DNA of 64,000 nucleotides from NCBI GenBank assembly GCA_963675755.2, contig CAXXMD010000001.1:288001-352000 (forward strand), read 5' to 3'. Below, piece after piece: positions 10,631-42,577 of this stretch; the first letter of the stretch is position 1; every line of letters begins with the position of its first letter. The notes beneath the pieces are model-generated. The model was not told the DNA's origin. It saw only the letters and a program-made list of their open reading frames with translations, and did not search any database. Made by a program: the position numbers and the translations under genes. This DNA comes from a bacterium. GTDB lineage: Bacteria > Zhuqueibacterota > Zhuqueibacteria > Residuimicrobiales > Krinioviventaceae.

Positions 10631-12940
10631 ATGAAACAAAGTCTAATCTCCATTATGGTTGTATTTTTACTATCTCTTTTTTCTTGCAGTCAGAAAACTG
10701 AATGGATTGATTATGTTGACCCGTTGATTGGTACGGGCCCCAGTACAACTAAAAGTAATATGAAGCATGGATCTGAACATGTAAATTATGCAAATGCTCA
10801 GGTCATTCCGGCAGTTACCATGCCGTTTGGGATGACAAACTGGACTCCCCAAACCCGGGAAACTGAAAAAAAATGTAATGCGCCATTCTATTATACTGAT
10901 CCCTATATCCAGGGATTCCGGGCCAGTCATTGGTTAAGTGGATCCTGTGCACAGGATTACGGCAGTTTTACTATTATGCCGGTTACCGGTGAATTAAAAT
11001 GTGCTCCATCTGTTCGTGGTGCCCATTTTGACCAGAATGCACAAATTACATCTCCGGCGTATTATGCCGTAGAATTGGAAGATTATCATGTAAAAGCTGA
11101 AATGACAGCATCAACCCGAAGTGCAATTTTTCGTTTCACTTTTGAAAATGCAGATTCTGCATTTATTCTCATTGATACCAACAGCGATGAAGGACAAGGC
11201 TTTATTCAGGTGAATCACGAGGCAAATGAGATTGTAGGTTATAATCCTGTTCACAGACTTTATCAGGGAATTGGTAAATATGCAGGATTTAAAGGATATT
11301 TTGTGATAAAGTTCGATAAACCGTTGCAGAATTTTGGTGTTTATCAGGAGAATACGCCGAAATACAAACAAAACAATATAAAAGATGAAAACAATATCGG
11401 CGGGTTTGCCGCTTTTCAGGTTAAAGCCGGTGATGAGTTATTGGTCAAAGCCGCGTCATCTTTTACCAGTATTGAACAGGCCAGAAAAAATCTGGATACA
11501 GAAATTCCAAATTGGGATTTTGAAAAAGTACATCAAAATATTCGTGACCATTGGAATGATTTATTGGGTCGTTACGAGATCAAATCCAAAAATAAAGATG
11601 ATTATGTTAAATTCTATACATCCATATACCATTGCTATCAACAACCCAGAATTGTAAATGATGTTGATGGTACCTATACCGGATTTGCACAGGATGATAA
11701 TGTATATCAAGCTGATGGATTTAATTATTTTGACGATTTTTCCATGTGGGATACATACAGAGCATTACATCCCTTGTATACCATCATGAACACCAAAGAA
11801 ACTATTTCGATGTTAAAATCCATTGTTATGAAAGCAGAGCAGGGCGGCTGGCTGCCAATTTTCCCCATGTACAACAGTTATACTTCTGCAATGATTGGTG
11901 ATCATATGATTTCTCTGGTTGGCGATGCATATATGAAAGGAATTGATGATTTTGATGTTGAAACCGCATATAAATATATGCGTCAGAATGCGTTCGAGTC
12001 TCCCGAGTCTTTAGATGATTATGCAGATGGCAAAGGACGACGTTCTTTGGGATCATATCTTAAATACGGATATATTCCGGTTGAAGATCCGGTACTTTAT
12101 GCTTTTCATAAACGGGAACAGAGTTCACGCACACTGGAATATGCTTATGATGATTTTGTACTTGCCGAAATTGCACAAAAACTGGGCAAAACAGATGATT
12201 ATAACAAACTCCTGGAACGGGCGCAATATTATAAAAATGTATTTGATCCAAATCTCGGGTATCTGCGCGGTAAACACCAAGATGGCAGCTGGGTTAAAGA
12301 TGCGGATTATAAAAAGCCACAACGATATGTTACCGAAGCAACACCTTTTCACTATTCCTGGTATGTTCCACATGATGTAGCGGGCCTGATTGATATAATG
12401 GGTGGTGCCGATTCTTTTACAGCAAGGCTGGATACTTTTTTTGTAGAAACCCACTATTGGCATGGAAACGAACCCAGTCATCAGGTGGTGTATATGTACA
12501 ATTATGCAGGGTATCCTGAAAAAGCACAAAAGACTATCCGTAATATTTTAAAAGAAGAATATGATGTGGGCCCAGGCGGTTTGAGCGGTAATGACGATTC
12601 GGGACAAATGTCTGCGTGGTATTTGTTTTCTGCTTTAGGCTTTTATCCGGTGTGCCCGGGTGTTCCTGAATATGTAATTGGAACACCATCATTTGATATC
12701 GTAACATTAACATTGGAAAATGATCGTAAATTCAAAATTATAGCTCACAATAATTCTGATGAAAATTGTTATATTGAATCCATTAAACTCAATGGTAATG
12801 ACTATAATAAAACATTTATTACTCATAAAGATATTGTGGCAGGTGGGAAATTGGAGTTCTTTATGACTTTTGATCCCAATACGGGTTGGGGAAGTGATAA
12901 TGATTCTGTTCCTTATTCTTTGTCAAATACAATACAGTAA
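10631..12940 (+). CDS. GH92 alpha-mannosidase-like glycoside hydrolase, lipoprotein
   Basis: Start moved to ATG 10631 (AAGGAG RBS, lipobox LFSC); YVDPLIGTG, PFGMTNWTP, FSMWDTYRALHPL, SRTLEYAYDD, GNEPSH, GNDDSGQMSAW. Confidence 0.93.
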   Translation: MKQSLISIMVVFLLSLFSCSQKTEWIDYVDPLIGTGPSTTKSNMKHGSEHVNYANAQVIPAVTMPFGMTNWTPQTRETEKKCNAPFYYTDPYIQGFRASHWLSGSCAQDYGSFTIMPVTGELKCAPSVRGAHFDQNAQITSPAYYAVELEDYHVKAEMTASTRSAIFRFTFENADSAFILIDTNSDEGQGFIQVNHEANEIVGYNPVHRLYQGIGKYAGFKGYFVIKFDKPLQNFGVYQENTPKYKQNNIKDENNIGGFAAFQVKAGDELLVKAASSFTSIEQARKNLDTEIPNWDFEKVHQNIRDHWNDLLGRYEIKSKNKDDYVKFYTSIYHCYQQPRIVNDVDGTYTGFAQDDNVYQADGFNYFDDFSMWDTYRALHPLYTIMNTKETISMLKSIVMKAEQGGWLPIFPMYNSYTSAMIGDHMISLVGDAYMKGIDDFDVETAYKYMRQNAFESPESLDDYADGKGRRSLGSYLKYGYIPVEDPVLYAFHKREQSSRTLEYAYDDFVLAEIAQKLGKTDDYNKLLERAQYYKNVFDPNLGYLRGKHQDGSWVKDADYKKPQRYVTEATPFHYSWYVPHDVAGLIDIMGGADSFTARLDTFFVETHYWHGNEPSHQVVYMYNYAGYPEKAQKTIRNILKEEYDVGPGGLSGNDDSGQMSAWYLFSALGFYPVCPGVPEYVIGTPSFDIVTLTLENDRKFKIIAHNNSDENCYIESIKLNGNDYNKTFITHKDIVAGGKLEFFMTFDPNTGWGSDNDSVPYSLSNTIQ

Positions 12941-12964
12941 TATTTAATATTATTTATAAAATTA

Positions 12965-13010
12965 AAATCCCGTCATGTCAAATTTTTGAAATGTGACGGG
13001 AGATTTATTT
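12965..13010 (+). terminator. Stem-loop / probable terminator after the first GH92
   Basis: TCCCGTCA…TGACGGGA inverted repeat followed by T-rich sequence. Confidence 0.55.
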
Positions 13011-13209
13011 GTCTAATAACGGATGCTGTTAAAGTGTGTTTTTAGAAAAAACATTGAGATTTAATAAAAAATAACTATATTAAAAAATATTTATTTTATC
13101 GCAAATATATTATGTTGTTGTAATAAAGTAGCAGAGATTAGCAGGCACCTTTTCTGATAATTTAATCTGATTTGATATTATTCTCATTAAATTTTAAAAC
13201 GGATAAAAA

Positions 13210-15249
13210 ATGCGTAAAATAATTTTCTACTCTATTGTAATATTTTTTACATCAATTCTGTCAGCCGCTGATTTGACCAGGTATGTTGATCCATTTATCT
13301 GTTCGGCAGGAGATCATGGACAACTTGATCCATCTGCAAATGTTCCCTTTGGGATGATCAAATTGGGGCCCCAGACGCTTCCCGGTGGTCATACCGGATA
13401 TGATTATAATGCCAAAGAAATATCTGGTTTTACCCACACCCGCTTGATGGGAGTAGGGTGCAGTGGCGCAGGTGGAGTACTGTTAACCAAGCCAGGATTA
13501 GGTGAGCCGAATGCAGACGCCGTAGAATATCTCAAAAATAGCGAAACTGCTACTCCTGGTTACTATGCTGTTAAATTTACCAATGGCATTCAGGCCGAGA
13601 TGACAATTAATCAACATGTGGGTTTGCAGCGTTTTACTTTTCCTCAATCCGATAAATCATTTATCATGATTGATCCGGCTTCTTCAATAGAGCAGGTACT
13701 CAGTTCTGAATATAAAATTAAATCTAACCGTGAAATTACTGGTAGAATAACTGCGCGTAATAATTGTAAGTTTGGCATGTACACCAATTATTATGTTATT
13801 ACTTTTGATAAGGCATTTGATTCTGTTGAAGAAAAAGACGGCAAAGTATTTCTGGTTTTTTCTTTAAAGCAAAATGATACTGTCAACATGAGTACAGCAC
13901 TTTCTCCGTTAAGTGTTGAACAGGCCAGAGAGGATTTGTACTCTGCATTACAAAACAAGTCTTTTGATACAGTTAAAGCAGAAGCACAGCAGGCCTGGGA
14001 GAAAATTTTTGAACGGGTTGTTGTTGAGGGTAAAGAAGAGTATAAAACCTTGTTTTATACCCATCTGTATCATTCCAGTTTATCTCCGTTCAACAGTACC
14101 AGCTCTTCCGGTACGTACAGGGGAACGGACAATAAAATTTACAAAGCTGAAGGTTATACCCATTACGATTCATGGTCCATTTGGGATACATTTCGCACAA
14201 AATTTCCCCTTGTAACTTTGCTTGAACCCGGTTTGATGCGGGATTTTTGTTTGTCACTGGTTGATTTGTACAATACAGGTTTAACGTATCAGCCGAGTAA
14301 TAGTGAACCCATTGTTACCTGCCGTACTGAGCATGCATCTATAGTTTTACTGGATGCGTGGAAAAAGGGCATTCCTTTTGATTTAAAAGCGGTTTATCCC
14401 AAGCTGGTAGAAGAAACAAAACAGTTTTCTACCGATTCTCCTGATAAAAAGCTGGAAGCAGCATATGATTATTGGGGATTAGCAGAAATTGCTAAAATCG
14501 TAGGAAATGATGCTGACTATGTTAAATATTCCAAAATGGCCGGTATGTATAAAGACATCTGGGTGGAAAAATTCAAAGTCATGAATGAAAATGCAGACAT
14601 CATGCATGGTGATGGATTATATGAAGGAACACTTTGGCAGTATCGCTGGTTTGTTCCCCAGGATATTTCGGGATTGTTGGAATTGTTTGAAGGAAAAGAC
14701 AATTACACTCAAGATTTAACCTATTTTTATGAAAATGATCTTTATAATCACGGTAATCAACCGGATATACATGTGCCGTTCATGTTTGCATTCAGCAACT
14801 CACCCTGGTTATCTCAAAAGTGGGTGAATGAAATATTAACCAAAGAAACAAAAAATTATTATGGTACCCATGTGAAATGGGACAAACCTTTTGTTGGTAG
14901 AATCTATAATACCAGTCCGCAAGGCTATATTCCAGAGATGGATGACGATGATGGAACCATGTCTGCCTGGTATGTTTTTGCAGCAATGGGGCTATATCCG
15001 TATTGTGTAGGTAAACCTGAATACGTGATAACCACCCCAATTTTTGACAACATCAAGATAGATCTTGAAAATGGTAATCCGTTAGAAATTAAAACCAAAA
15101 ACTTTTCTGATGAAAATTACTATATTCAATCTGTAACGTTTAATGGAAAAAAAATAAATTCGGCAATAATTACCCACGAGCAGCTGATGGAAGGCGGCGT
15201 TCTGGAGTATGAATTGGGAAACAAGCCCAATACTAAATTATTCAAGTAA
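13210..15249 (+). CDS. GH92 family glycoside hydrolase (shorter, divergent paralog)
   Basis: Signal peptide; YVDPFI, PFGMIKLGP, WSIWDTFRT, YEGTLWQY, GNQPDIH, DDDDGTMSAWYV. Confidence 0.9.
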   Translation: MRKIIFYSIVIFFTSILSAADLTRYVDPFICSAGDHGQLDPSANVPFGMIKLGPQTLPGGHTGYDYNAKEISGFTHTRLMGVGCSGAGGVLLTKPGLGEPNADAVEYLKNSETATPGYYAVKFTNGIQAEMTINQHVGLQRFTFPQSDKSFIMIDPASSIEQVLSSEYKIKSNREITGRITARNNCKFGMYTNYYVITFDKAFDSVEEKDGKVFLVFSLKQNDTVNMSTALSPLSVEQAREDLYSALQNKSFDTVKAEAQQAWEKIFERVVVEGKEEYKTLFYTHLYHSSLSPFNSTSSSGTYRGTDNKIYKAEGYTHYDSWSIWDTFRTKFPLVTLLEPGLMRDFCLSLVDLYNTGLTYQPSNSEPIVTCRTEHASIVLLDAWKKGIPFDLKAVYPKLVEETKQFSTDSPDKKLEAAYDYWGLAEIAKIVGNDADYVKYSKMAGMYKDIWVEKFKVMNENADIMHGDGLYEGTLWQYRWFVPQDISGLLELFEGKDNYTQDLTYFYENDLYNHGNQPDIHVPFMFAFSNSPWLSQKWVNEILTKETKNYYGTHVKWDKPFVGRIYNTSPQGYIPEMDDDDGTMSAWYVFAAMGLYPYCVGKPEYVITTPIFDNIKIDLENGNPLEIKTKNFSDENYYIQSVTFNGKKINSAIITHEQLMEGGVLEYELGNKPNTKLFK

Positions 15250-15285
15250 TCCACCAAACCGAATTGAAAAACAGGAGTATACTTT

Positions 15286-15855
15286 ATGAACCCCGCAATT
15301 AAAGATGCAATTGCCTTCCATAAACAGGCAATTGATGAATTTGAAAAAAACAGCCCGGCGTTATTACAAGAGATCGCCGATGCAATTACTAAAAGTTTGA
15401 ATAACAAAGGTACAGTTTACCTTTGTGGTAATGGTGGCTCTGCTGCCGATTGCCAGCATATAGCAGGTGAATTTGTAGGACGTTTTCGCAAAGAACGCAA
15501 AGCATTACCGGGAGTGGCATTGTCAACAGATACTTCAGTAATTACATGTCTTGGCAATGATTATGATTATAAAGATATTTTTTCACGTCAGGTTGAAGCT
15601 TTAATGGACAGCCAGGATATGTTGTGGGCATTTTCCACCAGTGGTACATCTGCAAATGTTATCAAAGCTGCAAAAGCAGCCAAAGAAAAAGGCGCCAAGG
15701 TTATAGCTTTTACCGGAAAAAGCAACAGCGAACTGGAAAAGATATCTGATTATTGTATCTGTGCAAACGCCAACTGGACCAGCACTTCTCAGGAAGTACA
15801 TCAGCTTTCTTACCATATAATATGTGATATTGTCGAACAGAACTTTGTAGAATAG
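15286..15855 (+). CDS. gmhA: Phosphoheptose (sedoheptulose-7-phosphate) isomerase, SIS domain
   Basis: AGGAG RBS; CGNGGSAADCQHIAGEFVGRF, GNDY, FSRQVEA, STSGTS, QEVH motifs. Confidence 0.92.
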   Translation: MNPAIKDAIAFHKQAIDEFEKNSPALLQEIADAITKSLNNKGTVYLCGNGGSAADCQHIAGEFVGRFRKERKALPGVALSTDTSVITCLGNDYDYKDIFSRQVEALMDSQDMLWAFSTSGTSANVIKAAKAAKEKGAKVIAFTGKSNSELEKISDYCICANANWTSTSQEVHQLSYHIICDIVEQNFVE

Positions 15856-15870
15856 AAATTTGAGGGAATA

Positions 15871-17775
15871 ATGAAAATTGAACGTGTCCGTGAGATCACT
15901 GAAAAAATTAAAGATGTAAAAATCGCCGTTTATGGAGATTTTTGCCTTGATGTATACTGGCCGCTTGATCCTAAAGGTGGTGAAATGTCAGTGGAAACTG
16001 GTATTCAGGCTGAAGCTGTTAGCCAGCAAAGTTATTCGCTTGGTGGCGCTTCAAATATTGTAGCAAATTTAACTGCGCTTAATCCTGCTTTGATCAAGGT
16101 AATTGGCGTAAGAGGTGACGATGTTTTTGGCCGGGAACTTGAACGTCTGTTAAAAGAAAAAAATGTAGATACCAGTGAACTGTTTATTCAAAAAGAGAAT
16201 TTTGATACATTCACTTATATTAAGCGCATTTTGGAAGATAAAGAACAACCCCGAATTGATTTTGGCTTTTTAAATAAACGATCTGCTGAAACCGATGAAA
16301 AATTATTAGCAGGTATTGAAAAAGCACTGCAGGAATTTGATATTATTATATTCAACCAACAGGTTGTAGGCAGTATACCCAACAAGGCCTTTATTGAAAA
16401 GGTCAATGAATTATGTCAAAAATATCCTGATAAAAATCTGGTGTTTGATTCACGCCATTATGGTGCCGAGTTTCACTATGTTTTGCGTAAACTGAATGAT
16501 ATTGAGGCAGGTATTTTAAATGGTGTTGAATATGAAGCGACTGATGTAATTACTGTTCAGGATGCTGAAGTTTATGCCAAGGCCCTTTATGAACGCTCTA
16601 AAAAACCGGTTGTACTGACTCGTGGTGGCCGTGGAATTCTGGTTTGTGATGAAACCGGTGTTACCGAGATTCCCGGTATTCAATTGTTAAAGAAACTAGA
16701 TACCGTAGGTGCGGGTGATACCACTATTAGTGCATTAGCACTCTGTCTGGCCGCTGGAATTGATACGGTTGATGCTGCCCGTTTTGCCAACATGGCTGCG
16801 GCTGTAACGGTACAAAAACTTTATACAACCGGAACCGCAAATGCTGAAGAAATAATGCAAATTGCGAGTGATACCAACTATTTATATCAACCGGAACTTG
16901 CCGATGATCCACGAAAAGCACAATATTACAAAGATACTGAAATCGAGTTGACATACAGTCTGGATTCCATGCAATTTGGCAGAATTAAATTTGCTGTATT
17001 TGATCATGATGGCACCATCAGTACCTTGCGTCAGGGCTGGGAAGCCATTATGGAACCCATGATGGTAAAAGCGATTCTGGGTGATCAGTATGAAACCGCT
17101 GGTGAAACCTTGTATCATAACGTTGTTCAACGTGTTCGTGATTTTATTGATCAATCTGTTGGAATTCAGACCATTTTGCAAATGGAAGCTCTTGTTGAAC
17201 TTGTTAAAGAATTTGGTATTGTACCGGAGGACCAGATTCTCGATAAATTTGGTTACAAAGAAATTTACAATGATGCATTGATGATTTCTGTTCGTAAACG
17301 TATGGCAAAGCTGGAGCGTAAAGAATTGAGCACTCCGGATTGGACCATGAAAGGTGCTGTTGAATTTTTGCAATCGATGCGTGATAAAGGCGTAACTTTG
17401 TATATGGCTAGTGGAACCGATAAAGAAGACGTTATTAACGAAGCCAAAACCCTGGGTTATGCTGACCTGTTTAATGGCGGTATTTATGGCGCAGTTGGTG
17501 ATGTATCCAAGTTTTCGAAAAAAATGCTCATTGAGCAGATCATGAAAGAGAATAACCTGCATGGATCAGAATTGGTTGTTTTTGGTGATGGTCCGGTTGA
17601 AATCCGTGAATGTCGTAAACGGGATGGTATAGCTGTAGGTATTGCAAGTGATGAATTACAACGTCATAGCCTGAATATTGATAAACGTACCCGTTTGATC
17701 AAGGCTGGCGCCCAGGTCGTCATTCCTGATTATTCTCAACGTGATTATTTGATGGATTTATTATTTAATGGTTAA
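15871..17775 (+). CDS. Fusion of HldE/RfaE domain-I-like PfkB kinase and HAD-family hydrolase
   Basis: N-terminal GDFCLDVY, LGGASNIVANL, DTVGAGDT (PfkB anion hole); C-terminal FDHDGT (HAD motif I), ASGT, FGDGPVE. No cytidylyltransferase HxGH domain. Confidence 0.85.
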   Translation: MKIERVREITEKIKDVKIAVYGDFCLDVYWPLDPKGGEMSVETGIQAEAVSQQSYSLGGASNIVANLTALNPALIKVIGVRGDDVFGRELERLLKEKNVDTSELFIQKENFDTFTYIKRILEDKEQPRIDFGFLNKRSAETDEKLLAGIEKALQEFDIIIFNQQVVGSIPNKAFIEKVNELCQKYPDKNLVFDSRHYGAEFHYVLRKLNDIEAGILNGVEYEATDVITVQDAEVYAKALYERSKKPVVLTRGGRGILVCDETGVTEIPGIQLLKKLDTVGAGDTTISALALCLAAGIDTVDAARFANMAAAVTVQKLYTTGTANAEEIMQIASDTNYLYQPELADDPRKAQYYKDTEIELTYSLDSMQFGRIKFAVFDHDGTISTLRQGWEAIMEPMMVKAILGDQYETAGETLYHNVVQRVRDFIDQSVGIQTILQMEALVELVKEFGIVPEDQILDKFGYKEIYNDALMISVRKRMAKLERKELSTPDWTMKGAVEFLQSMRDKGVTLYMASGTDKEDVINEAKTLGYADLFNGGIYGAVGDVSKFSKKMLIEQIMKENNLHGSELVVFGDGPVEIRECRKRDGIAVGIASDELQRHSLNIDKRTRLIKAGAQVVIPDYSQRDYLMDLLFNG

Positions 17776-17794
17776 TTAGGTTTTCAGGTGTTGA

Positions 17795-19492: not shown

Positions 19493-19533
19493 TACTTAAC
19501 ATACCGTCACTCACTTAAACGAGGGAAGATGAA

Positions 19534-20811: not shown

Positions 20812-20823
20812 TTGTTAACCGAC

Positions 20824-20870
20824 TGTAATATTTGCAGAGCTCTGGTGCTCTGCAAATATTACATATTTTT
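20824..20870 (+). terminator. Perfect 17-bp stem-loop, probable terminator
   Basis: TGTAATATTTGCAGAGC-tctggt-GCTCTGCAAATATTACA followed by TATTTTT. Confidence 0.7.
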
Positions 20871-20997
20871 ATAATATGTAATATTTACCCCATAATATCC
20901 AGAGTTCGTCTATACATTCGGATTCTTTATTCAGTTTGATCTATAACGCGTATATTTTCAATCGTACAGAACTTTATTTAAACACTGTTAATCCTGA

Positions 20998-22194: not shown

Positions 22195-22209
22195 TAATCG
22201 GGAAAAGAT

Positions 22210-23532
22210 TTGAATCAATTTATAAAAATTTTAGCAATATTCATTATTGTAATGGTGCTGACTGTTGGTTGTGGTAACCAAGTTCCTAAAAGTGTGCATG
22301 TATCAGATATTGCATTGGGTTGGGCGCAAAATAGCGTGAATACTACAATTTTGCGCAAGAATTCACTGGTTACTTTTAATGATACGCAATATGCCGCTTT
22401 TTATGATTCAATTGGTCATGTTGTACTTGCCAAACGGCAATTGGGCACAGATCAGTGGCTGGTCAAGCAAACCCGCTATTCCGGTAAAATTACGGATGCT
22501 CACAATTCCATCAGCATTATGGTGGATGGTGATGGTTATTTGCACATGGCCTGGGACCATCATAATGATTCTCTGCGCTATTGTAAAAGCATTGCTCCTG
22601 GTTCACTTGATTTTACTGAAAAGCAATCCATGATTGGCAGAGATGAAGTCAAGGTAACCTACCCTGAATTTTATCGGTTACCCAACGGAGATTTGATTTT
22701 TCTTTATCGTGTAGGGAAATCCGGTGACGGCAAACTGGTTATGAATCGATATGATCTCATTAAACGGGAATGGGAACGTATACACGATAATTTGATTGAT
22801 GGAGAAGGGGAGAGAAATGCCTATTGGCAATTTGCAGTAGACTTGTACGGAACATTTCATCTGTCATGGGTATGGCGTGAAACCGGTGATGTAGCGACCA
22901 ATCATGATATGTGTTACGCAAAATCCACAGATGGAGGCGTAACCTGGATAAAGACAACAGGTGATCTGTGTCAGATTCCCATAAATAAAAACAATGCCGA
23001 ATATGCAGTTCGAATCCCACAAAACAGTGAACTGATCAATCAAACATCCATGTGTGCGGATTCAAAAGGACGCCCCTACATTGCTACTTTTTATCGTCAA
23101 GATGGAGAATCAGTACCGCAATATCATCTGATTTATCATGATGGCAATAACTGGCAAACCCGACAGGTATCTGACCGGGAGATACCCTTTTCATTAAGCG
23201 GAGGTGGGACAAAACGCATCCCTATGAGTCGCCCTGTTATTGTTGCAGATACTTTGAATAACCAGGATGCGGCATACATGCTGTTTCGGGATATAGAATA
23301 TGAAAACAGGGTAATGGTTGCAGTATGTAATGATCTGACGACGAATACATGGAAGAATATAGTATTGTCCACTTTATCTGTTGGCGCCTGGGAACCCAGC
23401 TATGATACAGAATTGTGGAAAAAAAGTAAAATTCTGCATATATTTATACAGAATTCGGGTCAAGGAGACGGAGAAAAACTGGAAGCTTTGCCATCGCAGA
23501 TGGTTAGCGTAATACAATGGAAACCAGAGTGA
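22210..23532 (+). CDS. BNR-4 repeat beta-propeller lipoprotein (putative lyase/hydrolase)
   Basis: TTG start, lipobox TVGC; DAHNSIS…DGDGYLHMAWDHH, TYPEF, Asp-box STDGGVTW, LINQ. Confidence 0.8.
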   Translation: MNQFIKILAIFIIVMVLTVGCGNQVPKSVHVSDIALGWAQNSVNTTILRKNSLVTFNDTQYAAFYDSIGHVVLAKRQLGTDQWLVKQTRYSGKITDAHNSISIMVDGDGYLHMAWDHHNDSLRYCKSIAPGSLDFTEKQSMIGRDEVKVTYPEFYRLPNGDLIFLYRVGKSGDGKLVMNRYDLIKREWERIHDNLIDGEGERNAYWQFAVDLYGTFHLSWVWRETGDVATNHDMCYAKSTDGGVTWIKTTGDLCQIPINKNNAEYAVRIPQNSELINQTSMCADSKGRPYIATFYRQDGESVPQYHLIYHDGNNWQTRQVSDREIPFSLSGGGTKRIPMSRPVIVADTLNNQDAAYMLFRDIEYENRVMVAVCNDLTTNTWKNIVLSTLSVGAWEPSYDTELWKKSKILHIFIQNSGQGDGEKLEALPSQMVSVIQWKPE

Positions 23533-23560
23533 TTTAACCGAAAAATCAAAAGGAAAACCT

Positions 23561-24535
23561 ATGAGCGAGAAAACATATATTGGAATTGATATTGGTGGAA
23601 CCAAAACAGCCGTATTGCTGGTTGATGAAACGGGAAAATTGATTGAACGTAAACAGTTTCAAACCTTTACAGGTAATGGCGGCTGGCAAAAAAGTCTGGA
23701 TGAAATTATTTCCATGATAAAGGAATATCAAGATCAAGCTTCTCCTGCAGCGATTGGTATCAGTTGCGGCGGTCCCCTGAACAGCAGAACCGGTATGATC
23801 TTGTCTCCACCCAATTTACCGGGATGGGATAATGTACCCATTATTGAACTTTTGAACAAAGAATTTGGTTTACCTGTTGCTCTGGAAAATGATGCAAATG
23901 CAGGTGCACTGGCTGAATGGCGTTTTGGTGCAGGCAAGGGCAGTCGTAATATGATATTTTTAACCTTTGGTACGGGTCTGGGAGCAGGACTTGTTTTGGA
24001 TGGCCGGTTATATTCCGGAACCAATGATCTGGGTGGTGAAGCAGGACACCTGCGTTTGGATGATGACGGTCCCATTGGTTTTAACAAACGCGGATCTTTT
24101 GAAGGCTTTTGCAGCGGCACCGGTTTGTCACAAATGATGGCTTTTGAACTGTTATGTCTGGCTGAAGAAATTGGCAAAGAAGCTATGCTTGAAAAATATA
24201 AAGAACCGGGCCAGGTTACAGGCAAAGATGTTGTAATATGGGCACAGGCTGGCGATCCTCTTGCGCTCAAAGTTGTTGAAAAAAGCGGTACCTATTTGGG
24301 CAAAGGATTATCGTTTTTAATTGATATTATAAATCCTGAATTGATAGTGATTGGCAGTATGGGCGTGCGCCTGGGTGACATGCTTTTTGATCCTGCCAGA
24401 AAAGTGATTGAAAAAGAAGCTATACCCGGTGCGGTTGAGGTCTGTAAAATTGTGCCCGCGGAACTGGGTGAGAAAATTGGTGATTATGCTGCATTATGTG
24501 TGGCTATCAAAGCAGAAGAAAATAGTGTAAACTAA
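23561..24535 (+). CDS. ROK family sugar kinase
   Basis: IGIDIGGTKT, ISCGGPL…SPPNLPGW, ENDANAGALAE, GTGLGAG, GEAGH; no HTH domain. Confidence 0.92.
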   Translation: MSEKTYIGIDIGGTKTAVLLVDETGKLIERKQFQTFTGNGGWQKSLDEIISMIKEYQDQASPAAIGISCGGPLNSRTGMILSPPNLPGWDNVPIIELLNKEFGLPVALENDANAGALAEWRFGAGKGSRNMIFLTFGTGLGAGLVLDGRLYSGTNDLGGEAGHLRLDDDGPIGFNKRGSFEGFCSGTGLSQMMAFELLCLAEEIGKEAMLEKYKEPGQVTGKDVVIWAQAGDPLALKVVEKSGTYLGKGLSFLIDIINPELIVIGSMGVRLGDMLFDPARKVIEKEAIPGAVEVCKIVPAELGEKIGDYAALCVAIKAEENSVN

Positions 24536-24549
24536 ATGTTCCTCTTGAA

Positions 24550-25803
24550 ATGAGGTGGTCTATGAAACGTTTTGCAAGCCGTTTAAATAGCAATATTGAC
24601 AATCCAAGCCGACGGGATTTCCTCAAGCAGGGAGGCATAGCTGCTTTGGGAATTTCATTATCCGCGAACCCATCTTTTGCGGTTAATACTGCACCAAAAA
24701 AACTCCGAATAGGTATAGTAGGTGGAAGGTTTGGAGCCAGTTTCTTTTTTCATGAACATCCGGATTGTATTGTTCAAGCTGTGAGTGATTTAAGGCCGGA
24801 ACGACGTGAGCACCTCATGAAAACCTACAATTGTTCAAAATCTTACAACTCTCTTGAAGAGTTGGTTAAAGACAAAGATATTGATGCGGTAGGCGTTTTT
24901 ACTGAAGGTCCTAACCATGTAAAACATGTTTTGGAATGTTTAAAACATGGCAAACATGTGATCTGTGCGGTTCCTGCCTGTTGGGCAACCCTGGATGAAG
25001 CAGAACAGTTGTATAATGCGGTAAAATCTTCCGGATTGATTTATATGATGGCTGAAACCAGCTATTATCAGCAGCACACTATATCAGCCCGCGATTTTTA
25101 TAAAAAAGGCGAGTTTGGTGAAATCTATTACTGTGAATCTGAATATCAGCATAACGGGTTGGAATCTTTATATATTGAAGATGGTAAACGGACCTGGCGT
25201 TATGGAGTAGCTCCTATGCATTACCCCACACATTGTACCGCACATTTGCTTAGTGTAACGGGTGAACGCCTTGTGCAAGTCTCCTGTAATGGATGGGGAG
25301 ATGGTGATCCGATACTAAAAGACAATCCATACAATAATCCTTTTTGGAACGAATCCGCAATGTTTACAACGAATAAAGGCCATGCCTTTCGGGTAAATGT
25401 TTGGTGGAAAGGCGCGCATTTGGGTTGTGAACGGGCCCAATGGATTGGAAACAAGATGAGTTTTTATACCAGTAATCCGGTTGGATATGGGCCAACCCTG
25501 GTTGAAACGACCAGTGTTTTGGGTAAAGACGATGCAGGATTTGCCAGAATAGAAGCCAAAAAGACGCCTTATGAACAGCCGGAATGGTGGAAAACGGATT
25601 TGTTGCCTGAACCGTTGCGTCATAACAGCGGACATCATGGATCGCATACATTTTTGACCCATGAATTTGTTGATGCTTGTTTACATGAACGCAAACCGGT
25701 TGTAGATATTCATGAGGCCCTGGCGTATACCGTACCCGGAATTGTTGCACACCAGTCCGCATTGAATGGTGGAGCAAGTAAAGCAATTCCACAGTTTGTT
25801 TAA
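24550..25803 (+). CDS. Tat-exported Gfo/Idh/MocA NAD(P)-dependent oxidoreductase
   Basis: SRRDFLK Tat motif; IGIVG Rossmann strand, IDAVGVFT, GKHVICAVP, YPTH; alternative start at 24562. Confidence 0.85.
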   Translation: MRWSMKRFASRLNSNIDNPSRRDFLKQGGIAALGISLSANPSFAVNTAPKKLRIGIVGGRFGASFFFHEHPDCIVQAVSDLRPERREHLMKTYNCSKSYNSLEELVKDKDIDAVGVFTEGPNHVKHVLECLKHGKHVICAVPACWATLDEAEQLYNAVKSSGLIYMMAETSYYQQHTISARDFYKKGEFGEIYYCESEYQHNGLESLYIEDGKRTWRYGVAPMHYPTHCTAHLLSVTGERLVQVSCNGWGDGDPILKDNPYNNPFWNESAMFTTNKGHAFRVNVWWKGAHLGCERAQWIGNKMSFYTSNPVGYGPTLVETTSVLGKDDAGFARIEAKKTPYEQPEWWKTDLLPEPLRHNSGHHGSHTFLTHEFVDACLHERKPVVDIHEALAYTVPGIVAHQSALNGGASKAIPQFV

Positions 25804-25821
25804 ACCAATCAAGGTAGCTGT

Positions 25822-27396
25822 ATGCGTATGTTTAAGATAATTCGAAAAATTGTATTACTGCTATTGTTTGTCGGATGTTTCAGTTTTGTTTTTCCTGATC
25901 AATATAATATATTGGATTATGGTGCAGTTGGAGATTCTCAATTCCTGAATACCAGTGCAATCCAGACTGCAATTGATGCGTGTACAAAAGCCGGAGGTGG
26001 GACTGTATTTGTACCGGCAGGTATCTGGTTAACCGGAACGCTAATACTAAAGGATAATGTTTCCCTTTATCTGGAATCCGGTGCAACACTTTTTGGCAGT
26101 CCCTATTTACGGGATTATTCCCTCACTATACCGGCAATACGTTCGTACACCGATAATTATACAAACAAGAGTCTGATTTACGCAGAGAATGCAGAAAATG
26201 TCTCCATATTGGGACAAGGTGCTATCAATGGTCAGGGTGAGTTGTTTACCGGGGATTATAAAACACGCCCCTATCTCATCCGCATGATTGGCTGCTCGAA
26301 TGTTACGGTGAAAAATATTTCATTGCTTCATTCACCCATGTGGGTACAGCATTATCTTGAATGTGATCATGTTTTGATTGACGGGATAACCGTACGCAGC
26401 TTGAAAGAACAGAATAATGATGGTATTGATATTGATAGCTGCCATTTTGTACGCATTGCCAATTGCGACATTGATTGTGGCGATGATGCAATTGTATTGA
26501 AAAGCACAACAAACCGTATTTGCAGGGATGTTGTGATTACAAACTGTATTTTAAAATCGCAGGCCAGTGCGTTAAAATGCGGGACCGAATCCAATGGCGG
26601 GTTTGTAAATATTACCATTGATAACTGTGTGGTGCGCGACACCCGTCGTTCAGGCATCGCCCTGGAGATGGTGGATGGTGGTATTATGGATCGTGTTACT
26701 GTTTCCAATATTATTATTGAGAATTCCGGCAGTGCGATATTTGTCCGCCTTGCCAATCGGGCACGCCCCATTAACGCGGAAAGAGGACGGTCCTATGGCG
26801 ATTTAAAAAGACCGGGTATGGGGACTATGCGAAACATTATGATCAGTAATGTACAGGCAACCGGTATTGACAGTATAGGGTCATCCATAACCGGACAGCC
26901 GGGGCATCCTATAGAAAATATTACGCTCGAGAATATTCGCATCCAATATAATGGCGGTGGTACACATGAACATGCCGCGAGAGAGGTTGAAGAACACCCG
27001 GAATCGTATCCCGAATATGATCGCCTGGGCGGTCCTTTGCCTGCATATGGATTTTATTGTCGTCATGTGAACAATTTGAGATTGGAAAATATAGAGGTTA
27101 CCTTTGCTCAGGACGATGAGCGTCCTGCTCTGTTTTGTGACGATGTAAAGCAATTAAAGATTTTAGATTATAATGCAAAATTGTTGCATAATGTTAATGC
27201 AATGATTTATTTGAAAAATGTTCAGGACGCATATGTTTCAAACTGCAGCTCCTTTACTCCGGTCCAACATTTGGTTTGGGCAAAGGGTGAACATACTCGT
27301 CAGATTGTTGTTGATGCAAAAGATCCCTGGAACGTCAATAAAATACTAGAACTGGATTCCAGTGTATCAAAAAAGGAAATAAAAATATACAAATGA
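25822..27396 (+). CDS. GH28 polygalacturonase-like beta-helix glycoside hydrolase
   Basis: YNILDYGAVGD, AIQTAIDAC, NNDGIDID, GDDAIVLKS, KCGTES. Confidence 0.9.
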   Translation: MRMFKIIRKIVLLLLFVGCFSFVFPDQYNILDYGAVGDSQFLNTSAIQTAIDACTKAGGGTVFVPAGIWLTGTLILKDNVSLYLESGATLFGSPYLRDYSLTIPAIRSYTDNYTNKSLIYAENAENVSILGQGAINGQGELFTGDYKTRPYLIRMIGCSNVTVKNISLLHSPMWVQHYLECDHVLIDGITVRSLKEQNNDGIDIDSCHFVRIANCDIDCGDDAIVLKSTTNRICRDVVITNCILKSQASALKCGTESNGGFVNITIDNCVVRDTRRSGIALEMVDGGIMDRVTVSNIIIENSGSAIFVRLANRARPINAERGRSYGDLKRPGMGTMRNIMISNVQATGIDSIGSSITGQPGHPIENITLENIRIQYNGGGTHEHAAREVEEHPESYPEYDRLGGPLPAYGFYCRHVNNLRLENIEVTFAQDDERPALFCDDVKQLKILDYNAKLLHNVNAMIYLKNVQDAYVSNCSSFTPVQHLVWAKGEHTRQIVVDAKDPWNVNKILELDSSVSKKEIKIYK

Positions 27397-27432
27397 TCAT
27401 AGAATTATGTTTTTATTGAGAAAGGCTGTACC

Positions 27433-30207
27433 ATGAAAAAGTTGCTCGTTATTTCCATTTTACTGTTTTGCGCAGAGGTGTTTGCTATGCCGGACATGAG
27501 CTATTTACCTGAATTAAACGGAACACATGATCTGAGTTTACCGGACTGGGGCCCCTATACCAAACGATATATTGGTGTATCTCATATTACAGATGTTGAC
27601 CAGGGAATCCGTTTTGATCTGAGTGTGTTCCCCGGATATTACCGACGCAAGGTATTTGTCCCAAACGTTTTTTACGAATCAGGATACCATCCCTGGGAAG
27701 CCTCTCCAAATTTTGAATATTTCAGTTTTCGTCATGAAATTGAATGGCAGGATAAAGTATATACAGATGTTTCTTATTCAGAGATTGACAAGAATTCCCG
27801 ACTGGTACGTGTGGAATGTGTAAATAATACGGATCTAAACCAGAATTTGGCTCTGCATTTTATGGCGTCTTTGCATTTTCCGCCTATCAAGGCATACAGT
27901 CCTTATACACCACTGTATATGGGATTGATTACTTTACCTGCAAAAGCAGTCTGGATTGACGCACTGGACTATCAGGATTTGACCTTTATCAATCCACGTC
28001 CTCAGGATAATCTGGTGTACGATGGTAAAATGCGAGCGGAAATCCGTGATGATGGATTTGTAAATGGATCAGGTATTGGCCTTGGCTTTGGCGCGGACAA
28101 GGGTGATAAAGTCAGCTATGTAATAAAGACTGATGTACCTGTTGATGATGCGGTACTGTATATACGTTATAATATGAGTGAAAATCACAGTGTAAATTTT
28201 AATGTAACAGGTATGGTAACTGCCAATTTAACTTTATCGGGTAATGGTGATTTTGCATACCAGACTATTGACCTCGGTAAAGTTTATCCCGGCTCACAGT
28301 TGCTGACTCTGGAATCTCAGGGCGGCAGTCCTGTAAAGCTGGACGGAATGACTGTGGTATCAAAACAGGATGTGAAATCAATCAATATTGTACAAAAAGA
28401 TTGGGATCCCGTCCCGGAAATACTTGACGGTCCGGTAACGAATTCTGTGATCCTGAAATACAAAGATATTGATCTTTATTATGGTATTTCATGGGATTTT
28501 GACATGTTTCAGATTCGTGAATGGTATATGCGCGACCTGGGTGATTATTTTAAACAAATGAGCAATGAACATGTAAAAACTGTCTTTAAAGGAGAAGGTA
28601 AAGGCCATTTTACCAATATTTTTTTCAGACCTGTGAATATTGAACCCCGATCCACCAAAATTATTAACGGAATGGTTTGTTGTGGAACCAAAGAAGAGGT
28701 TGAAAGCTATCTGAGTGACAACAGCAATACCACAGAAAAATATGATTCTATTTATAAAGATGCACGATCTCACCTGGTTAATCTGGATGCTACTCCTGAA
28801 GGAGAAAAATACAAGTTTAGTATAGAGCGCATGACCGCAACCACCACATGTAATGTGGTATATCCGGTATATACTCAGAAACAATATATCCGTCACAGTG
28901 CACCCGGTCGCTGGTGGGACTGTTTGTACACATGGGATTCCGGATTTATTGGCATTGGATTGCTGCAGCTTGATGAGCGTCGTGCTGTGGAAAATCTGAA
29001 TGCTTATGTGAATGAACCCGGAGCTCAGTCCGCATTCATCCATCATGGCACACCGGTTCCGGTTCAGCATTACCTATTTCTCGAGTTGTGGAACCAGCTC
29101 CAGTCTGCCAAGTATTTGGAATATTTTTATCCTCGTTTAAAACAATATCACGAATTTATGGCCGGACGTTTGGGCAGTTCTACAACCCGTGCTATGAAAT
29201 CCAATCTGTTAAAAACCTGGGACTATTTTTACAATTCAGGCGGCTGGGATGATTATCCTCCTCAGAAATATCTGCATGAACAACGCTGGGAAAGTAATGT
29301 TACTCCGGTTGTTACAACCGCGCATGTCATACGTACCGCTAAAATCCTGAAAATGGCTGCCGCGCAATTGGGTTTGACCCAGGACATCAAGGCTTACGAT
29401 AAAGATATTGAAATGTTTTCCAAGGCACTGCAAAAACATTCCTGGGATGAGGATTCCGGATATTTTGGGTACGTGGTGCACAATGAAAAGGGAAAGCCGG
29501 AACACATTATGAAATATGAAGACAAAGTAAATTATAATATGGGTCTCGGTGGAGCCTACCCCTTGTTTTCTGGTATTTGTAATGATGAACAGAAGCAGAT
29601 CTTGTTGGAAAAGTTGAAATCCGATAAACATATCTGGTCTCAGGTTGGATTGTCTGCTGTAGATCAATCCGCACCTTATTATCGCACAGATGGTTACTGG
29701 AATGGTACGGTTTGGCTGTCACATCAATGGTTTTTCTGGAAATCCATGCTGGATCTGGGTGAAGGAGAATTTGCATTCAAGATTGCAAAAACCGCACTCG
29801 AAACCTGGAAACGCGAAGTTGAAGCCTCATATACATGTGCTGAGCATTTCCTCATTGAAACCGGACGCGGAGCCGGGTGGCACGAGTTTGGCGGACTCTC
29901 TGCACCGGTACTGGACTGGTATACATCCTATTTTCGTCCCGGACATTTAACAACCGGCCTGGATGTCTGGACAACCAAAACGGTATTTGATCAGGATAAT
30001 ACTGAATTGAACACAGAGTTTGATATTTTTAGTGATGATAACAAGACCTGTTCAGTTGTGGTTTGTATGAATCCGGAATATTCATATAAAGCTGTTTGGA
30101 ATGGTGTTGAAGTTCCTGTTAACGAGTTTGCAAAAGGTACGTTGAGTATTGACCTGCCCATCGAAAAACTGGAACACGGTTCATTAAAGGTTACCAAGGC
30201 AAATTAA
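27433..30207 (+). CDS. Secreted GH63/MGH1-like (alpha/alpha)6 glycoside hydrolase with N-terminal beta domains
   Basis: Signal peptide; LPDWGPY N-terminus; YTWDSGF, SGGWDDYP, YWNGTVW, EHF catalytic-type motifs. Confidence 0.75.
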   Translation: MKKLLVISILLFCAEVFAMPDMSYLPELNGTHDLSLPDWGPYTKRYIGVSHITDVDQGIRFDLSVFPGYYRRKVFVPNVFYESGYHPWEASPNFEYFSFRHEIEWQDKVYTDVSYSEIDKNSRLVRVECVNNTDLNQNLALHFMASLHFPPIKAYSPYTPLYMGLITLPAKAVWIDALDYQDLTFINPRPQDNLVYDGKMRAEIRDDGFVNGSGIGLGFGADKGDKVSYVIKTDVPVDDAVLYIRYNMSENHSVNFNVTGMVTANLTLSGNGDFAYQTIDLGKVYPGSQLLTLESQGGSPVKLDGMTVVSKQDVKSINIVQKDWDPVPEILDGPVTNSVILKYKDIDLYYGISWDFDMFQIREWYMRDLGDYFKQMSNEHVKTVFKGEGKGHFTNIFFRPVNIEPRSTKIINGMVCCGTKEEVESYLSDNSNTTEKYDSIYKDARSHLVNLDATPEGEKYKFSIERMTATTTCNVVYPVYTQKQYIRHSAPGRWWDCLYTWDSGFIGIGLLQLDERRAVENLNAYVNEPGAQSAFIHHGTPVPVQHYLFLELWNQLQSAKYLEYFYPRLKQYHEFMAGRLGSSTTRAMKSNLLKTWDYFYNSGGWDDYPPQKYLHEQRWESNVTPVVTTAHVIRTAKILKMAAAQLGLTQDIKAYDKDIEMFSKALQKHSWDEDSGYFGYVVHNEKGKPEHIMKYEDKVNYNMGLGGAYPLFSGICNDEQKQILLEKLKSDKHIWSQVGLSAVDQSAPYYRTDGYWNGTVWLSHQWFFWKSMLDLGEGEFAFKIAKTALETWKREVEASYTCAEHFLIETGRGAGWHEFGGLSAPVLDWYTSYFRPGHLTTGLDVWTTKTVFDQDNTELNTEFDIFSDDNKTCSVVVCMNPEYSYKAVWNGVEVPVNEFAKGTLSIDLPIEKLEHGSLKVTKAN

Positions 30208-30216
30208 GATATATTG

Positions 30217-30253
30217 AAAAGGATCGGTAGTGAAAAATACCGGTCTTTTTTTT
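30217..30253 (+). terminator. Rho-independent terminator
   Basis: GGATCGGTA…TACCGGTCT stem followed by a T8 tail. Confidence 0.75.
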
Positions 30254-40029: not shown

Positions 40030-40030
40030 C

Positions 40031-42545: not shown

Positions 42546-42577
42546 CACTCTTGAATAAATATCCCTATTGCTAATAT

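Follow-up and report, generated by a model that had tools for sequence, protein, structure and literature searches.

Genes in the window, the 64,000-nt stretch of DNA analysed here, were called from an ORF listing together with Pfam and NCBIfam scans, and all of the locus genes described below lie on the + strand. The scans recovered in place every gene that the initial annotation had named, as well as two that it had overlooked, unk565 and a GH145-like gene. The locus starts with GH92a (10631-12940), a member of the alpha-mannosidase family (PF07971, 569 bits) with a lipoprotein-type signal (LFSC) when read from the ATG at 10631. The genes that follow form two likely transcription units divided by strong hairpins. 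Unit A (13210-20811) contains GH92b, gmhA, a PfkB/HAD fusion, unk565, and an MFS transporter, while unit B (20998-30207) contains the AGE, GH145-like, ROK, GFO, GH28, and GH63-like genes.

GH92b (13210-15249), the first gene of unit A, encodes a divergent GH92 protein with a signal peptide that is matched by PF07971 in three stretches (348.7 bits). Both GH92 proteins score above the TIGR01180 cutoff of 249.55 (567.2 bits for GH92a and 357.1 bits for GH92b). The nearest PDB entries are 7zgm (E 2e-136) and 2wzs (E 2.5e-128) for GH92a and CcMan5, 2xsg (E 2.2e-90), for GH92b. The initial annotation had these enzymes releasing heptose; the nearest solved relatives of both, however, are alpha-mannosidases and CcMan5, and we know of no heptosidase. 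The last gene of unit A (19534-20811) encodes a sugar/H+ symporter of the GluP/FucP type, which exceeds the cutoff of the gluP model (TIGR01272, 298.4 bits versus 202.55) and falls below that of the fucP model (244 bits). Between the fusion and the transporter lies unk565 (17795-19492), encoding a 565-residue protein with a Tat signal that belongs to no Pfam family and whose 2891 homologues are all unnamed or "hypothetical". An Atlas feature score of 0.95 to heparinase II/III-like and ulvan-lyase clusters is a lead, and our single one, toward a lyase-like protein. A PDB profile search with unk565 returned no significant relative, the best match being the N-terminus of a hyaluronate lyase (E 0.2). 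A homologue on a Streptomyces plasmid sits after a ROK regulator and a CUT1 ABC importer.

Unit B begins with AGE (20998-22194), whose closest structures are 6f04 (E 6.5e-85) and 2gz6 (E 1.2e-83). Judged by sequence, it is of the classic N-acylglucosamine (GlcNAc) 2-epimerase type, which speaks against the proposal that it handles the L-glycero epimer of heptose. It is followed by a BNR_4/GH145-like lipoprotein (22210-23532; PF15892, 310.6 bits; BT3686 model, 642.3 versus a cutoff of 700), a ROK sugar kinase (23561-24535; ROK, 188 bits; ROK_glcA_fam, 189.4 versus a cutoff of 260), a GFO/IDH/MocA oxidoreductase with a twin-arginine signal (24550-25803; RRDFLK in the N-terminus), and a secreted GH28 (25822-27396; BT4146-type model, 314 bits versus a cutoff of 500). 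The last gene (27433-30207) encodes a secreted GH63/MGH1-like (alpha/alpha)6 glycosidase (PF22422, 96.9 bits), for which the structural matches, YgjK and TTHA0978, are remote (E about 6e-6).

Three long hairpins were used as evidence for unit boundaries, and no other predicted site was, as there is no overall excess of sigma-70-like sites (78 versus 68 in shuffled sequences) or of terminators (18 versus 15.7). A hairpin with a U-rich tract 3' of GH92a (12969-13000; dG -17.2 kcal/mol, z -3.8, none of 200 shuffles as stable) probably terminates a separate GH92a transcript. A 17-bp hairpin with a U-tract (20824-20863; dG -26.4, z -7.6) forms a terminator-like end of unit A after the MFS gene, and is also present in the 98%-identical sister genome (locus L001), for which 22 kb of chromosome OY843751.1 were compared. 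The terminator-like end of unit B, after the GH63-like gene, is a 14-bp hairpin with a U-tract (30216-30251; dG -16.9, z -5.6). Upstream of GH92b, a block of about 68 nt (approximately 13041-13108, as read from the alignment) is identical in the sister genome and contains a promoter-like site (13054-13081; TTGAGA-16-TATATT, matching 10 of 12 positions). Within unit A no terminator-like structure was found between GH92b and the MFS gene, and the spacer between GH92b and gmhA is unstructured (dG -1.4). Thus gmhA and the kinase/HAD fusion appear to share a transcript with the secreted GH92b, the Tat-exported unk565, and the sugar/H+ symporter, and the hairpins and the conserved upstream block bear out the earlier placing of gmhA, 36 nt after a secreted GH92 gene, in one run with the fusion and an importer. 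The 36-nt gap itself is not distinctive, since same-strand gaps in the window have a median of 19 nt and the + strand carries 31 of its 37 genes, and in a window so compact and strand-biased adjacency alone is weak evidence. On the other hand, the pathway of ten genes proposed initially is not supported, since the AGE, ROK, GFO, GH28, and GH63-like genes belong to a second unit, which lies beyond the strong terminator-like hairpin. GC3 gave no sign of a recent insertion, and a tRNA was the sole match in an Rfam scan. None of the 37 window ORFs of at least 150 residues has a cytidylyltransferase-like, SDR-epimerase, GT9, or other LPS domain, in agreement with the initial observation that no gene for LPS synthesis or heptose activation lies in the window.

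The gmhA gene (15286-15855), with AGGAG 8 nt upstream of its ATG, encodes a sedoheptulose-7-phosphate isomerase of the GmhA type (SIS_2, 111 bits; best PDB match 2xbl, E 2.2e-43). Its PDB matches include eleven distinct GmhA sequences (E 2e-43 to 4e-34), and the alignment with solved GmhA structures spans 163 residues at the better of these values. The His/Glu and Gln/His stretches of GmhA hold its metal and catalytic residues. The corresponding QHIAGEF and QE.H....H stretches of 2xbl are retained, and H58, H172, and H177 are invariant in the eight sequences aligned. The protein scores below the NCBIfam equivalog cutoffs (TIGR00441, 183.1 versus 209.45; NF010546, 188.9 versus 276). On these comparisons we regard it as a canonical GmhA. 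It shares 57-65% identity with the GmhAs encoded directly upstream of the fusion in five other loci, which are dispersed across a quick version of the fusion tree.

The gene next to gmhA (15871-17775) encodes an HldA-like PfkB kinase (about residues 1-335; 47-321 in domain scans) fused to a C1-cap HAD domain (about residues 370-634; 372-578 in domain scans). For the kinase domain the best NCBIfam model is rfaE_dom_I (TIGR02198), at 141.4 bits below its cutoff of 345, and the best PDB match is HldA, 4e84 (E 3e-13). The PfkB motifs are intact, with G58, G59, and G280-A281-G282-D283 invariant in 21 sequences. The HAD domain, in contrast to the capless (C0) architecture of GmhB, is predicted to carry a helical insertion between motifs I and II (about domain residues 56-148) in a structure model of the fusion with a pLDDT of 84. 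As read from the alignment, the cap insertion has ~135 residues, and the beta-PGM cap is shorter. No GmhB or HAD-IIIA NCBIfam model matched the domain at E up to 1, and hhalign gave a probability of 0.9% against E. coli GmhB. By sequence and predicted fold, therefore, this HAD domain is not GmhB-like.

In Foldseek comparisons the predicted HAD fold was nearest to BT2127 pyrophosphatase and the beta-phosphoglucomutases, which are C1-cap HADs. The beta-PGM-type matches (4gib, 8q1c, 6hdk, 4c4t, 1lvh, and 4g9b; E 8.5e-9 to 3.4e-7) have target TM scores of 0.64-0.72, and the BT2127 entries score about equally well. Foldseek cannot separate a mutase from a phosphatase. Membership in the beta-PGM family was not found at the sequence level, TIGR02009 reaching E 0.11 in one homologue only and hhalign giving 4.8%. 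The best matches of the HAD domain in a PDB profile search, phosphatases of the KdsC/YrbI type (E 0.009-0.04), are not significant. Because the predicted C1-cap fold is nearest to BT2127 and the beta-phosphoglucomutases, the HAD domain could be a reversible mutase.

The fusion is present in 328 genomes, and we surveyed the neighbourhoods of 80 related loci, anchored on the fusion only. The gmhA/fusion pair belongs to a module found across several phyla, in which a GmhA-like SIS protein and an HldA-like kinase are combined with a GSU2086-family protein and with either a HAD domain or an adenylyltransferase. For 58 loci 2.5 kb or more of upstream sequence was available, and in 47 of them a GSU2086-family gene adjoins the fusion. 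The commonest partner, in 53 of these 58, is a protein ~72% identical to PDB 8h1k, which we take to be the Runella free-mannose 2-epimerase. The window has no GSU2086 homologue. Most of the 80 loci have housekeeping neighbours, mainly thrS, infC, pilB, FHA, and CvpA genes on the downstream side. The initial annotation had looked to co-occurrence with GH92, ROK, and GH63-like genes for a check of its pathway; GH92 and ROK, as well as a FucP-type MFS, GH28, and GH145, were found near the fusion in one locus of the 80, that of the sister genome, and a GH63-like gene in none.

In Geobacter the module comprises GSU2085 (hldE), GSU2086, and GSU2087 (gmhA), which have similar Tn-seq scores (-3.1, -3.2, and -3.7, respectively), and the label given to GSU2086 is "in sugar biosynthesis operon" (PMC5585712). 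On Solidesulfovibrio pDCAR1 an HldE-like adenylyltransferase/kinase, a GSU2086-family protein, and a SIS protein are encoded amid NeuB/PseF-type and radical-SAM genes, within a glycan-synthesis island. A Chloroflexota plasmid carries a HAD, a GSU2086-family protein, an HldA-like kinase, and a SIS protein, preceded by a GntR regulator, an ABC sugar importer, GFO oxidoreductases, and DeoC. In L040, which holds the closest relative of the window fusion outside the sister genome, four glycosyltransferase genes come next downstream. The HAD-type modules outside Planctomycetota sit near importers, and sugar importers are found near the module in L019, L054, L083, and the window; that of L052 may instead go with a ribokinase-like gene. 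Neither the window nor the related loci examined showed a nucleotidyltransferase, an HldD, or a heptosyltransferase, and the small conserved ORFs found there in a search for an HldC-like gene were HepT, TIR, PIN, and housekeeping genes. Two copies of the fusion in one MAG (L042 and L077), with 79% identity and a common context, probably reflect bin heterogeneity rather than paralogy, and a second "fusion" in L052 turned out to be an unrelated PfkB kinase.

The gene content and family assignments, the likely unit boundaries, and the conservation of the module elsewhere allow us to weigh several readings of the gmhA/fusion pair. The best explanation, which we hold tentatively and at somewhat less than even odds, is that the pair makes heptose-1-phosphate from sedoheptulose-7-phosphate as a conserved module working in the usual anabolic direction. 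[quoted passage not shown] We favour biosynthesis because the module lies in sugar-biosynthesis settings in Geobacter and Solidesulfovibrio, because GmhA appears canonical and the best relatives of the kinase are HldA and rfaE_dom_I, and because L040 has its four glycosyltransferase genes while CAZymes accompany the fusion in a single locus of the 80. The place of the pair in a five-gene CAZyme unit could then reflect hitch-hiking in a compact, CAZyme-dense, strand-biased region, or regulatory coupling. Several observations argue against biosynthesis. GH92b, unk565, and the MFS are unusual unit partners for a housekeeping pair that serves biosynthesis, the HAD domain does not resemble GmhB and its predicted fold is nearest to BT2127 and beta-PGM, and the commonest partner of the fusion is the free-sugar epimerase homologue, an enzyme type that has no role in the textbook ADP-heptose pathway. 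What is more, importers lie near the module in four loci, the examined loci show no nucleotidyltransferase, HldD, or heptosyltransferase, and the gmhA and rfaE_dom_I scores are under their equivalog cutoffs.

The HAD domain and its most constant neighbour, the homologue of a free-sugar 2-epimerase, are the reasons for which a reversible salvage route is still conceivable, and a heptose catabolic route, narrowed to unit A, is in our estimate doubtful. GH92b would free alpha-linked manno-heptose, the MFS would take it up, the HldA-like domain would phosphorylate the beta-anomeric O1, the beta-PGM-like HAD would shift the phosphate from O1 to O7 via a 1,7-bisphosphate, and GmhA would deliver sedoheptulose-7-phosphate to the pentose phosphate pathway. 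The glycosidase, importer, kinase, mutase-like domain, and isomerase would make a complete logic within one likely transcription unit. The predicted HAD fold, the epimerase homologue found in 53 of the 58 loci, the importers near HAD-type modules outside Planctomycetota, and the neighbours of the Chloroflexota plasmid module are all in its favour; a search of a paper library turned up no heptose catabolic pathway, and the initial annotation knew of no well-characterised one. However, the GH92/ROK co-occurrence confined to the sister genome, the lack of a GH63-like neighbour in the survey, the mannosidase and CcMan5 relatives of the GH92s, and the lyase-like look of unk565 do not fit this scheme. 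Nor do the biosynthetic settings in Geobacter, Solidesulfovibrio, and L040 and the conserved housekeeping synteny around most fusions, and the HAD fold is read by a method that lacks the power to tell a mutase from a phosphatase. Of the initial catabolic interpretation, then, the apparent co-transcription of unit A is supported, while the ten-gene pathway, the co-occurrence, and the heptosidase are not. A bolder version, that unit A is the first heptose salvage or catabolic operon, with a self-priming "beta-phosphoheptomutase", we consider unlikely. Here GH92 would act as an alpha-heptosidase, the MFS would import the C7 sugar, the anomeric kinase domain would yield a beta-1-phosphate or 1,7-bisphosphate, the beta-PGM-like HAD would move the phosphate to O7, and GmhA would run backwards into the pentose phosphate pathway; modules of a HAD, a free-sugar epimerase, and a GSU2086-family protein would then mirror, on the catabolic side, the nucleotidyltransferase-type biosynthetic modules.

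Two further readings are less probable still. Unit A may be a manno-hexose utilisation operon built from heptose-pathway paralogues, in which GH92b would release mannose, the MFS would import it, PfkB would serve as the kinase for mannose, with the HAD and SIS proteins taking the product on to fructose-6-phosphate. GH92 enzymes are mannosidases, the MFS is above cutoff for the glucose/galactose transporter subfamily, the scanned window ORFs include no cupin-type phosphomannose isomerase domain, the fusion's partner is homologous to the mannose 2-epimerase 8h1k, and the kinase and GmhA are under the equivalog cutoffs. We nevertheless judge it quite improbable, as GmhA aligns over 163 residues with genuine GmhAs and keeps their active-site stretches, the kinase's best matches are heptose-7-phosphate kinases, and we know of no GmhA that acts on hexose-6-phosphate. 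The least probable of the readings, by analogy with Bacteroides FKP, which salvages fucose into biosynthesis, is that imported heptose would be activated at O1 for the cell's own surface glycans, with GmhA feeding the same heptose pool de novo. This would reconcile the importer/glycosidase unit with the biosynthetic settings of the module elsewhere, but no nucleotidyltransferase or glycosyltransferase lies nearby in the window.

Heptoses are plentiful in the envelopes of Gram-negative bacteria and act as immune agonists, and our literature search found no route for their reuse or breakdown. The locus is a concrete five-gene candidate for heptose salvage or breakdown, open to expression and assay, and it draws attention to a widespread, unstudied module variant composed of the fusion of an HldA-like kinase with a HAD of predicted beta-PGM-like fold, a GSU2086-family protein, and often a homologue of the free-sugar 2-epimerase. 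The related genomes suggest that in this pair we see a conserved module for heptose synthesis and not a proven pathway of heptose breakdown. If this ordinary reading is true, what is learned is more modest, namely a new domain architecture that serves the kinase and phosphatase steps, together with a caution against assigning function by adjacency in compact, CAZyme-dense genomes.

Compared with the ADP-heptose pathway (GmhA, HldA/HldE, GmhB, HldC, and HldD), the window encodes an adjacent isomerase, kinase, and HAD that follow the order of steps one to three, with a GmhA close to the solved GmhAs and a kinase close to HldA and rfaE domain I. It differs in that the kinase is fused to a HAD, the HAD is not of the GmhB type, HldC, HldD, and GT9 are absent nearby, and the setting is a glycan-degradation operon. 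The heptose architectures listed in PMC11573728 are a nucleotidyltransferase alone, a kinase/nucleotidyltransferase, and an isomerase/kinase/nucleotidyltransferase. Like the Bacteroidota alpha-mannan and N-glycan loci, the window places secreted or lipoprotein GH92s beside an importer and sugar kinases; in contrast to those loci, no SusD-like gene was recognised next to the TonB-dependent receptor of the window. To our knowledge, heptose-phosphate enzymes do not occur in Bacteroidota GH92 loci. The HAD domain resembles beta-phosphoglucomutase (HAD-IA; E. coli ycjT-ycjU) in its predicted fold (E about 1e-8 to 3e-7), and both would handle beta-anomeric sugar 1-phosphates via a bisphosphate, whereas the domain lacks sequence membership and unit A lacks a cytoplasmic phosphorylase. 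The Geobacter and Solidesulfovibrio clusters have a GSU2086-family protein, unlike the window, and carry an adenylyltransferase domain where the window has a HAD. They share with it the GmhA-like SIS protein and the HldA-like kinase, and a GSU2086-family gene also stands beside the fusion in 47 of the 58 loci.

Twelve genes lie on the + strand within window 10631-30207, as determined from the ORF listing and from Pfam and NCBIfam scans. Two of them encode GH92 proteins, GH92a (10631-12940), which has a lipoprotein-type signal, and the secreted GH92b (13210-15249). These are followed by gmhA (15286-15855), a gene for a fusion of an HldA-like PfkB kinase with a C-terminal HAD domain (15871-17775), a gene for a 565-aa Tat-signal protein matching no Pfam family at E values as high as 1 (unk565, 17795-19492), and a GluP/FucP-type MFS gene (19534-20811). 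Further downstream are genes for an N-acylglucosamine 2-epimerase superfamily protein (AGE, 20998-22194), a GH145-like BNR_4 protein (22210-23532), a ROK protein (23561-24535), a Tat-signal GFO/IDH/MocA oxidoreductase (GFO, 24550-25803), a GH28 protein (25822-27396), and a GH63/MGH1-like protein (27433-30207). The genes named in the initial annotation were all correct, but unk565 and the GH145-like gene had been left out. As claimed there, gmhA starts 36 nt past the GH92b stop in window coordinates and LPS genes are absent: the window-wide domain scan, which covered 37 ORFs 150 aa or longer, yielded no cytidylyltransferase, SDR-epimerase, GT9, or other LPS domain (0/37). Neither a second gmhA, a second fusion, nor a GSU2086 homologue was found within the window.

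The median same-strand intergenic gap is 19 nt and the + strand carries 31 of the 37 genes; gene spacing is not informative in this window. Hairpins with a U-rich tract are located 3' of GH92a (12969-13000; dG -17.2, z -3.8), the MFS gene (20824-20863; 17 bp, dG -26.4, z -7.6), and the GH63-like gene (30216-30251; dG -16.9, z -5.6). The post-MFS hairpin is retained in L001, a 98%-identical sister genome. A block of ~68 nt 5' of GH92b, containing a promoter-like site, is also identical in L001, while its flanks vary. The spacer between GH92b and gmhA has no structure (dG -1.4) and contains AGGAG 8 nt 5' of the gmhA ATG. Because of the three hairpins, the conservation of the post-MFS hairpin, and the conserved block, we read the region as two predicted units, unit A comprising GH92b, gmhA, the fusion, unk565, and MFS, and unit B extending from AGE through the GH63-like gene. 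Window-wide totals of promoter-like and terminator-like sites show no excess over shuffles. The earlier proposal that a heptose pathway extends to AGE, ROK, GFO, GH28, and the GH63-like gene, all in predicted unit B, is unsupported.

GmhA can be aligned to Burkholderia GmhA 2xbl along 163 residues (E 2.2e-43) and retains the His/Glu and Gln/His stretches; it scores under both NCBIfam equivalog cutoffs. The kinase domain contains the PfkB motifs, has HldA 4e84 as its top solved relative (E 3e-13), and scores 141 bits against the rfaE domain I model, under the cutoff of 345. The HAD domain matched no defined HAD subfamily in the model scan and no solved structure at the sequence level in the profile search, and hhalign probabilities were 0.9% for E. 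coli GmhB and 4.8% for the beta-phosphoglucomutase of the same species. An AlphaFold model (27 sequences; pLDDT 84, pTM 0.80) has a helical cap inserted past motif I, and its nearest folds are the BT2127 pyrophosphatase, beta-phosphoglucomutases, and phosphoglycolate-phosphatase-like HADs (E ~6e-9 to 3e-7, target TM 0.6-0.72). Given the lack of a subfamily match, the 0.9% against GmhB, and this cap-bearing fold, the modeled domain is not GmhB-like, and Foldseek cannot separate phosphatase from mutase.

The nearest relatives of GH92a are BT3990-type alpha-mannosidases. For GH92b the nearest solved relative is not of that type but is CcMan5 (E 2.2e-90), which we take to be a Man-1-P-6-Man uncapping enzyme. 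At 679 aa GH92b is shorter than usual, and its family-model match is broken into pieces. The unk565 family has at least 2891 members (48-54% identity; Cytophagales, KSB1, Planctomycetia, Verrucomicrobia), always unnamed or annotated as "hypothetical", and neither a Pfam model nor a solved relative was found for it. Its Atlas features lie near heparinase II/III-like and ulvan-lyase clusters (0.95), a lead to a lyase-like protein, possibly a polysaccharide lyase. A Streptomyces homologue has a ROK regulator and an oligosaccharide ABC importer upstream. The window AGE is of the classic GlcNAc 2-epimerase type and, with ROK, resembles the Bacteroides ManNAc/GlcNAc route; nothing ties it to heptose.

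Fusion relatives number 2981 among 7998 scored. With the protein encoded in the window itself left aside, the top 119 show 61-66% identity; those named are mostly Phycisphaerae and Sedimentisphaerales. A contig search matched 356 stretches, of which 328 were confirmed; neighbors were counted by tblastn in the best 80, 58 of which have at least 2.5 kb and 73 at least 0.7 kb upstream. Among these 58, 53 have upstream of the fusion an AGE-superfamily gene of another subfamily (L036:7624-8904, L019:8618-9892, and 51 more loci), 23% identical to the window AGE. The L019 copy is ~72% identical to PDB 8h1k over 419 residues, and the L036 copy matches it with E 2.7e-204. We take 8h1k-8h1n to be the Runella mannose 2-epimerase, and its association with the fusion may hint at what this enzyme family does physiologically. 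A GSU2086-family gene (NF052581, 338 bits) is beside the fusion in 47 of the 58, and one or both partners occur in 54, the exceptions being L001, L040, L054, and L069. The gmhA gene is directly 5' of the fusion in 6/73 loci (L001, L008, L012, L018, L024, L068), dispersed across a quick tree. The 3' neighbors are mostly CvpA, pilB, FHA, thrS, and infC genes. GH92a, GH92b, unk565, the FucP-type MFS, ROK, GH28, GH145, and the Tat GFO accompany the fusion only in L001, and the GH63-like gene in none of the best 80 of 328; the cross-genome co-occurrence proposed initially therefore fails in this fusion-anchored sample. In the tree the window, L001, L040, and L054 (Calditrichaceae) form a long branch outside the main Phycisphaerae group. 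L040, the closest non-sister relative, has four glycosyltransferase genes 3' of the fusion, three of them GT2 and one GT1. Sugar importers are near the fusion in L019 (MFS), L054 (SSF), L083 (ABC), and the window; an importer in L052 probably belongs with a ribokinase/nucleoside hydrolase pair.

Related modules occur in other phyla. A Chloroflexota plasmid has the order HAD (42% identity to the fusion's HAD), GSU2086-family protein (386 bits), HldA-like kinase (28%), and GmhA-like SIS protein (34%), with a GntR regulator, an IolE-like protein, GFO oxidoreductases, DeoC, and a ribose-type ABC importer upstream. Solidesulfovibrio carbinolicus pDCAR1 encodes an HldE-like adenylyltransferase/kinase along with GSU2086-family (384 bits) and SIS proteins amid NeuB/PseF-type, methyltransferase, and radical-SAM genes. 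The GSU2086 family (L023:7001-8047, L083:10778-11758, L084:9992-10957; no window homologue) weakly matches Rossmann-type ArgZ-like, LOR/SDH, and homospermidine-synthase models. In Planctomycetota, Chloroflexota, Geobacter, and Solidesulfovibrio the family is linked to an HldA-like kinase and, where there is one, to a GmhA-like SIS protein. The family looks like an unrecognized member of heptose metabolism; a role as heptose epimerase is a guess.

The surrounding CAZyme island includes a 3-keto-disaccharide hydrolase lipoprotein (30319-31017) and a Tat-signal BT2158-like glycoside 3-dehydrogenase (33435-34805; 177 bits, where the cutoff is 750), which together suggest an oxidative glycoside-cleavage route. 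Two URO-D/MtaA-like genes (31027-32172, +; 36453-37487, -) may encode demethylases for methylated sugars; URO-D-like genes also adjoin the fusion in L040, L069, and L070. A PL2-like gene 3' of the fusion in L043 and L053 is 56% identical to window 34805-36370, and a tRNA-Arg(CCG) (39956-40030) lies mid-island. Continuing through 40299-56440 are GH51, a GH130-like lipoprotein, two GH2, GH106, another GFO gene, and, farther along, a dehydratase of the mandelate-racemase type and a GntP permease, suggesting a target glycan rich in rhamnose/uronate/mannose. On the other side, a 1246-aa secreted protein (6744-10484) combines a PQQ-like beta-propeller with a C-terminal malectin domain; its gene lies downstream of an FtsX/ABC pair and of a TonB-dependent receptor that contains a CarboxypepD_reg domain. 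L054 also has a PQQ-type protein resembling it close to the fusion.

We tentatively favor a biosynthetic module for gmhA and the fusion, although at less than even confidence. GmhA is canonical, the kinase relatives are HldA-like, and the module (GmhA-like SIS, HldA-like kinase, GSU2086-family protein, and HAD or adenylyltransferase) occurs in a biosynthetic context in two phyla as well as in L040. Biosynthesis is further favored by the housekeeping synteny around the fusion at most loci, by the failure of the catabolic neighbors to recur elsewhere (best 80 of 328), by the compactness and strand bias of the window, which make adjacency cheap, and by a composition that shows no sign of insertion. 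Weighing against biosynthesis and for a reversible salvage route are the apparent co-transcription, as predicted from sequence, of gmhA and the fusion with genes for a GH92 that is secreted, a protein exported by Tat, and an importer; a free-sugar epimerase homologue as the fusion's partner at nearly all loci; the beta-phosphoglucomutase-like rather than GmhB-like fold of the HAD model; the importers near the module outside Planctomycetota; and the absence of a nucleotidyltransferase from all HAD-type loci examined.

Heptose catabolism confined to unit A is kept as a possible but doubtful reading. Manno-hexose utilization by heptose-pathway paralogues appears unlikely, and salvage of heptose into biosynthesis is ranked just after it; the remainder of our confidence goes to something else. 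In the literature collection searched, queries on heptose catabolism, degradation, utilization, salvage, heptosidase, and heptokinase returned no catabolic pathway, "heptokinase" there denoting biosynthetic 1-O-kinases only, and Phycisphaerae with heptose returned nothing. The fusion differs from the three architectures set out in a commentary on NDP-heptose enzymes, none of which is kinase/HAD (PMC11573728).
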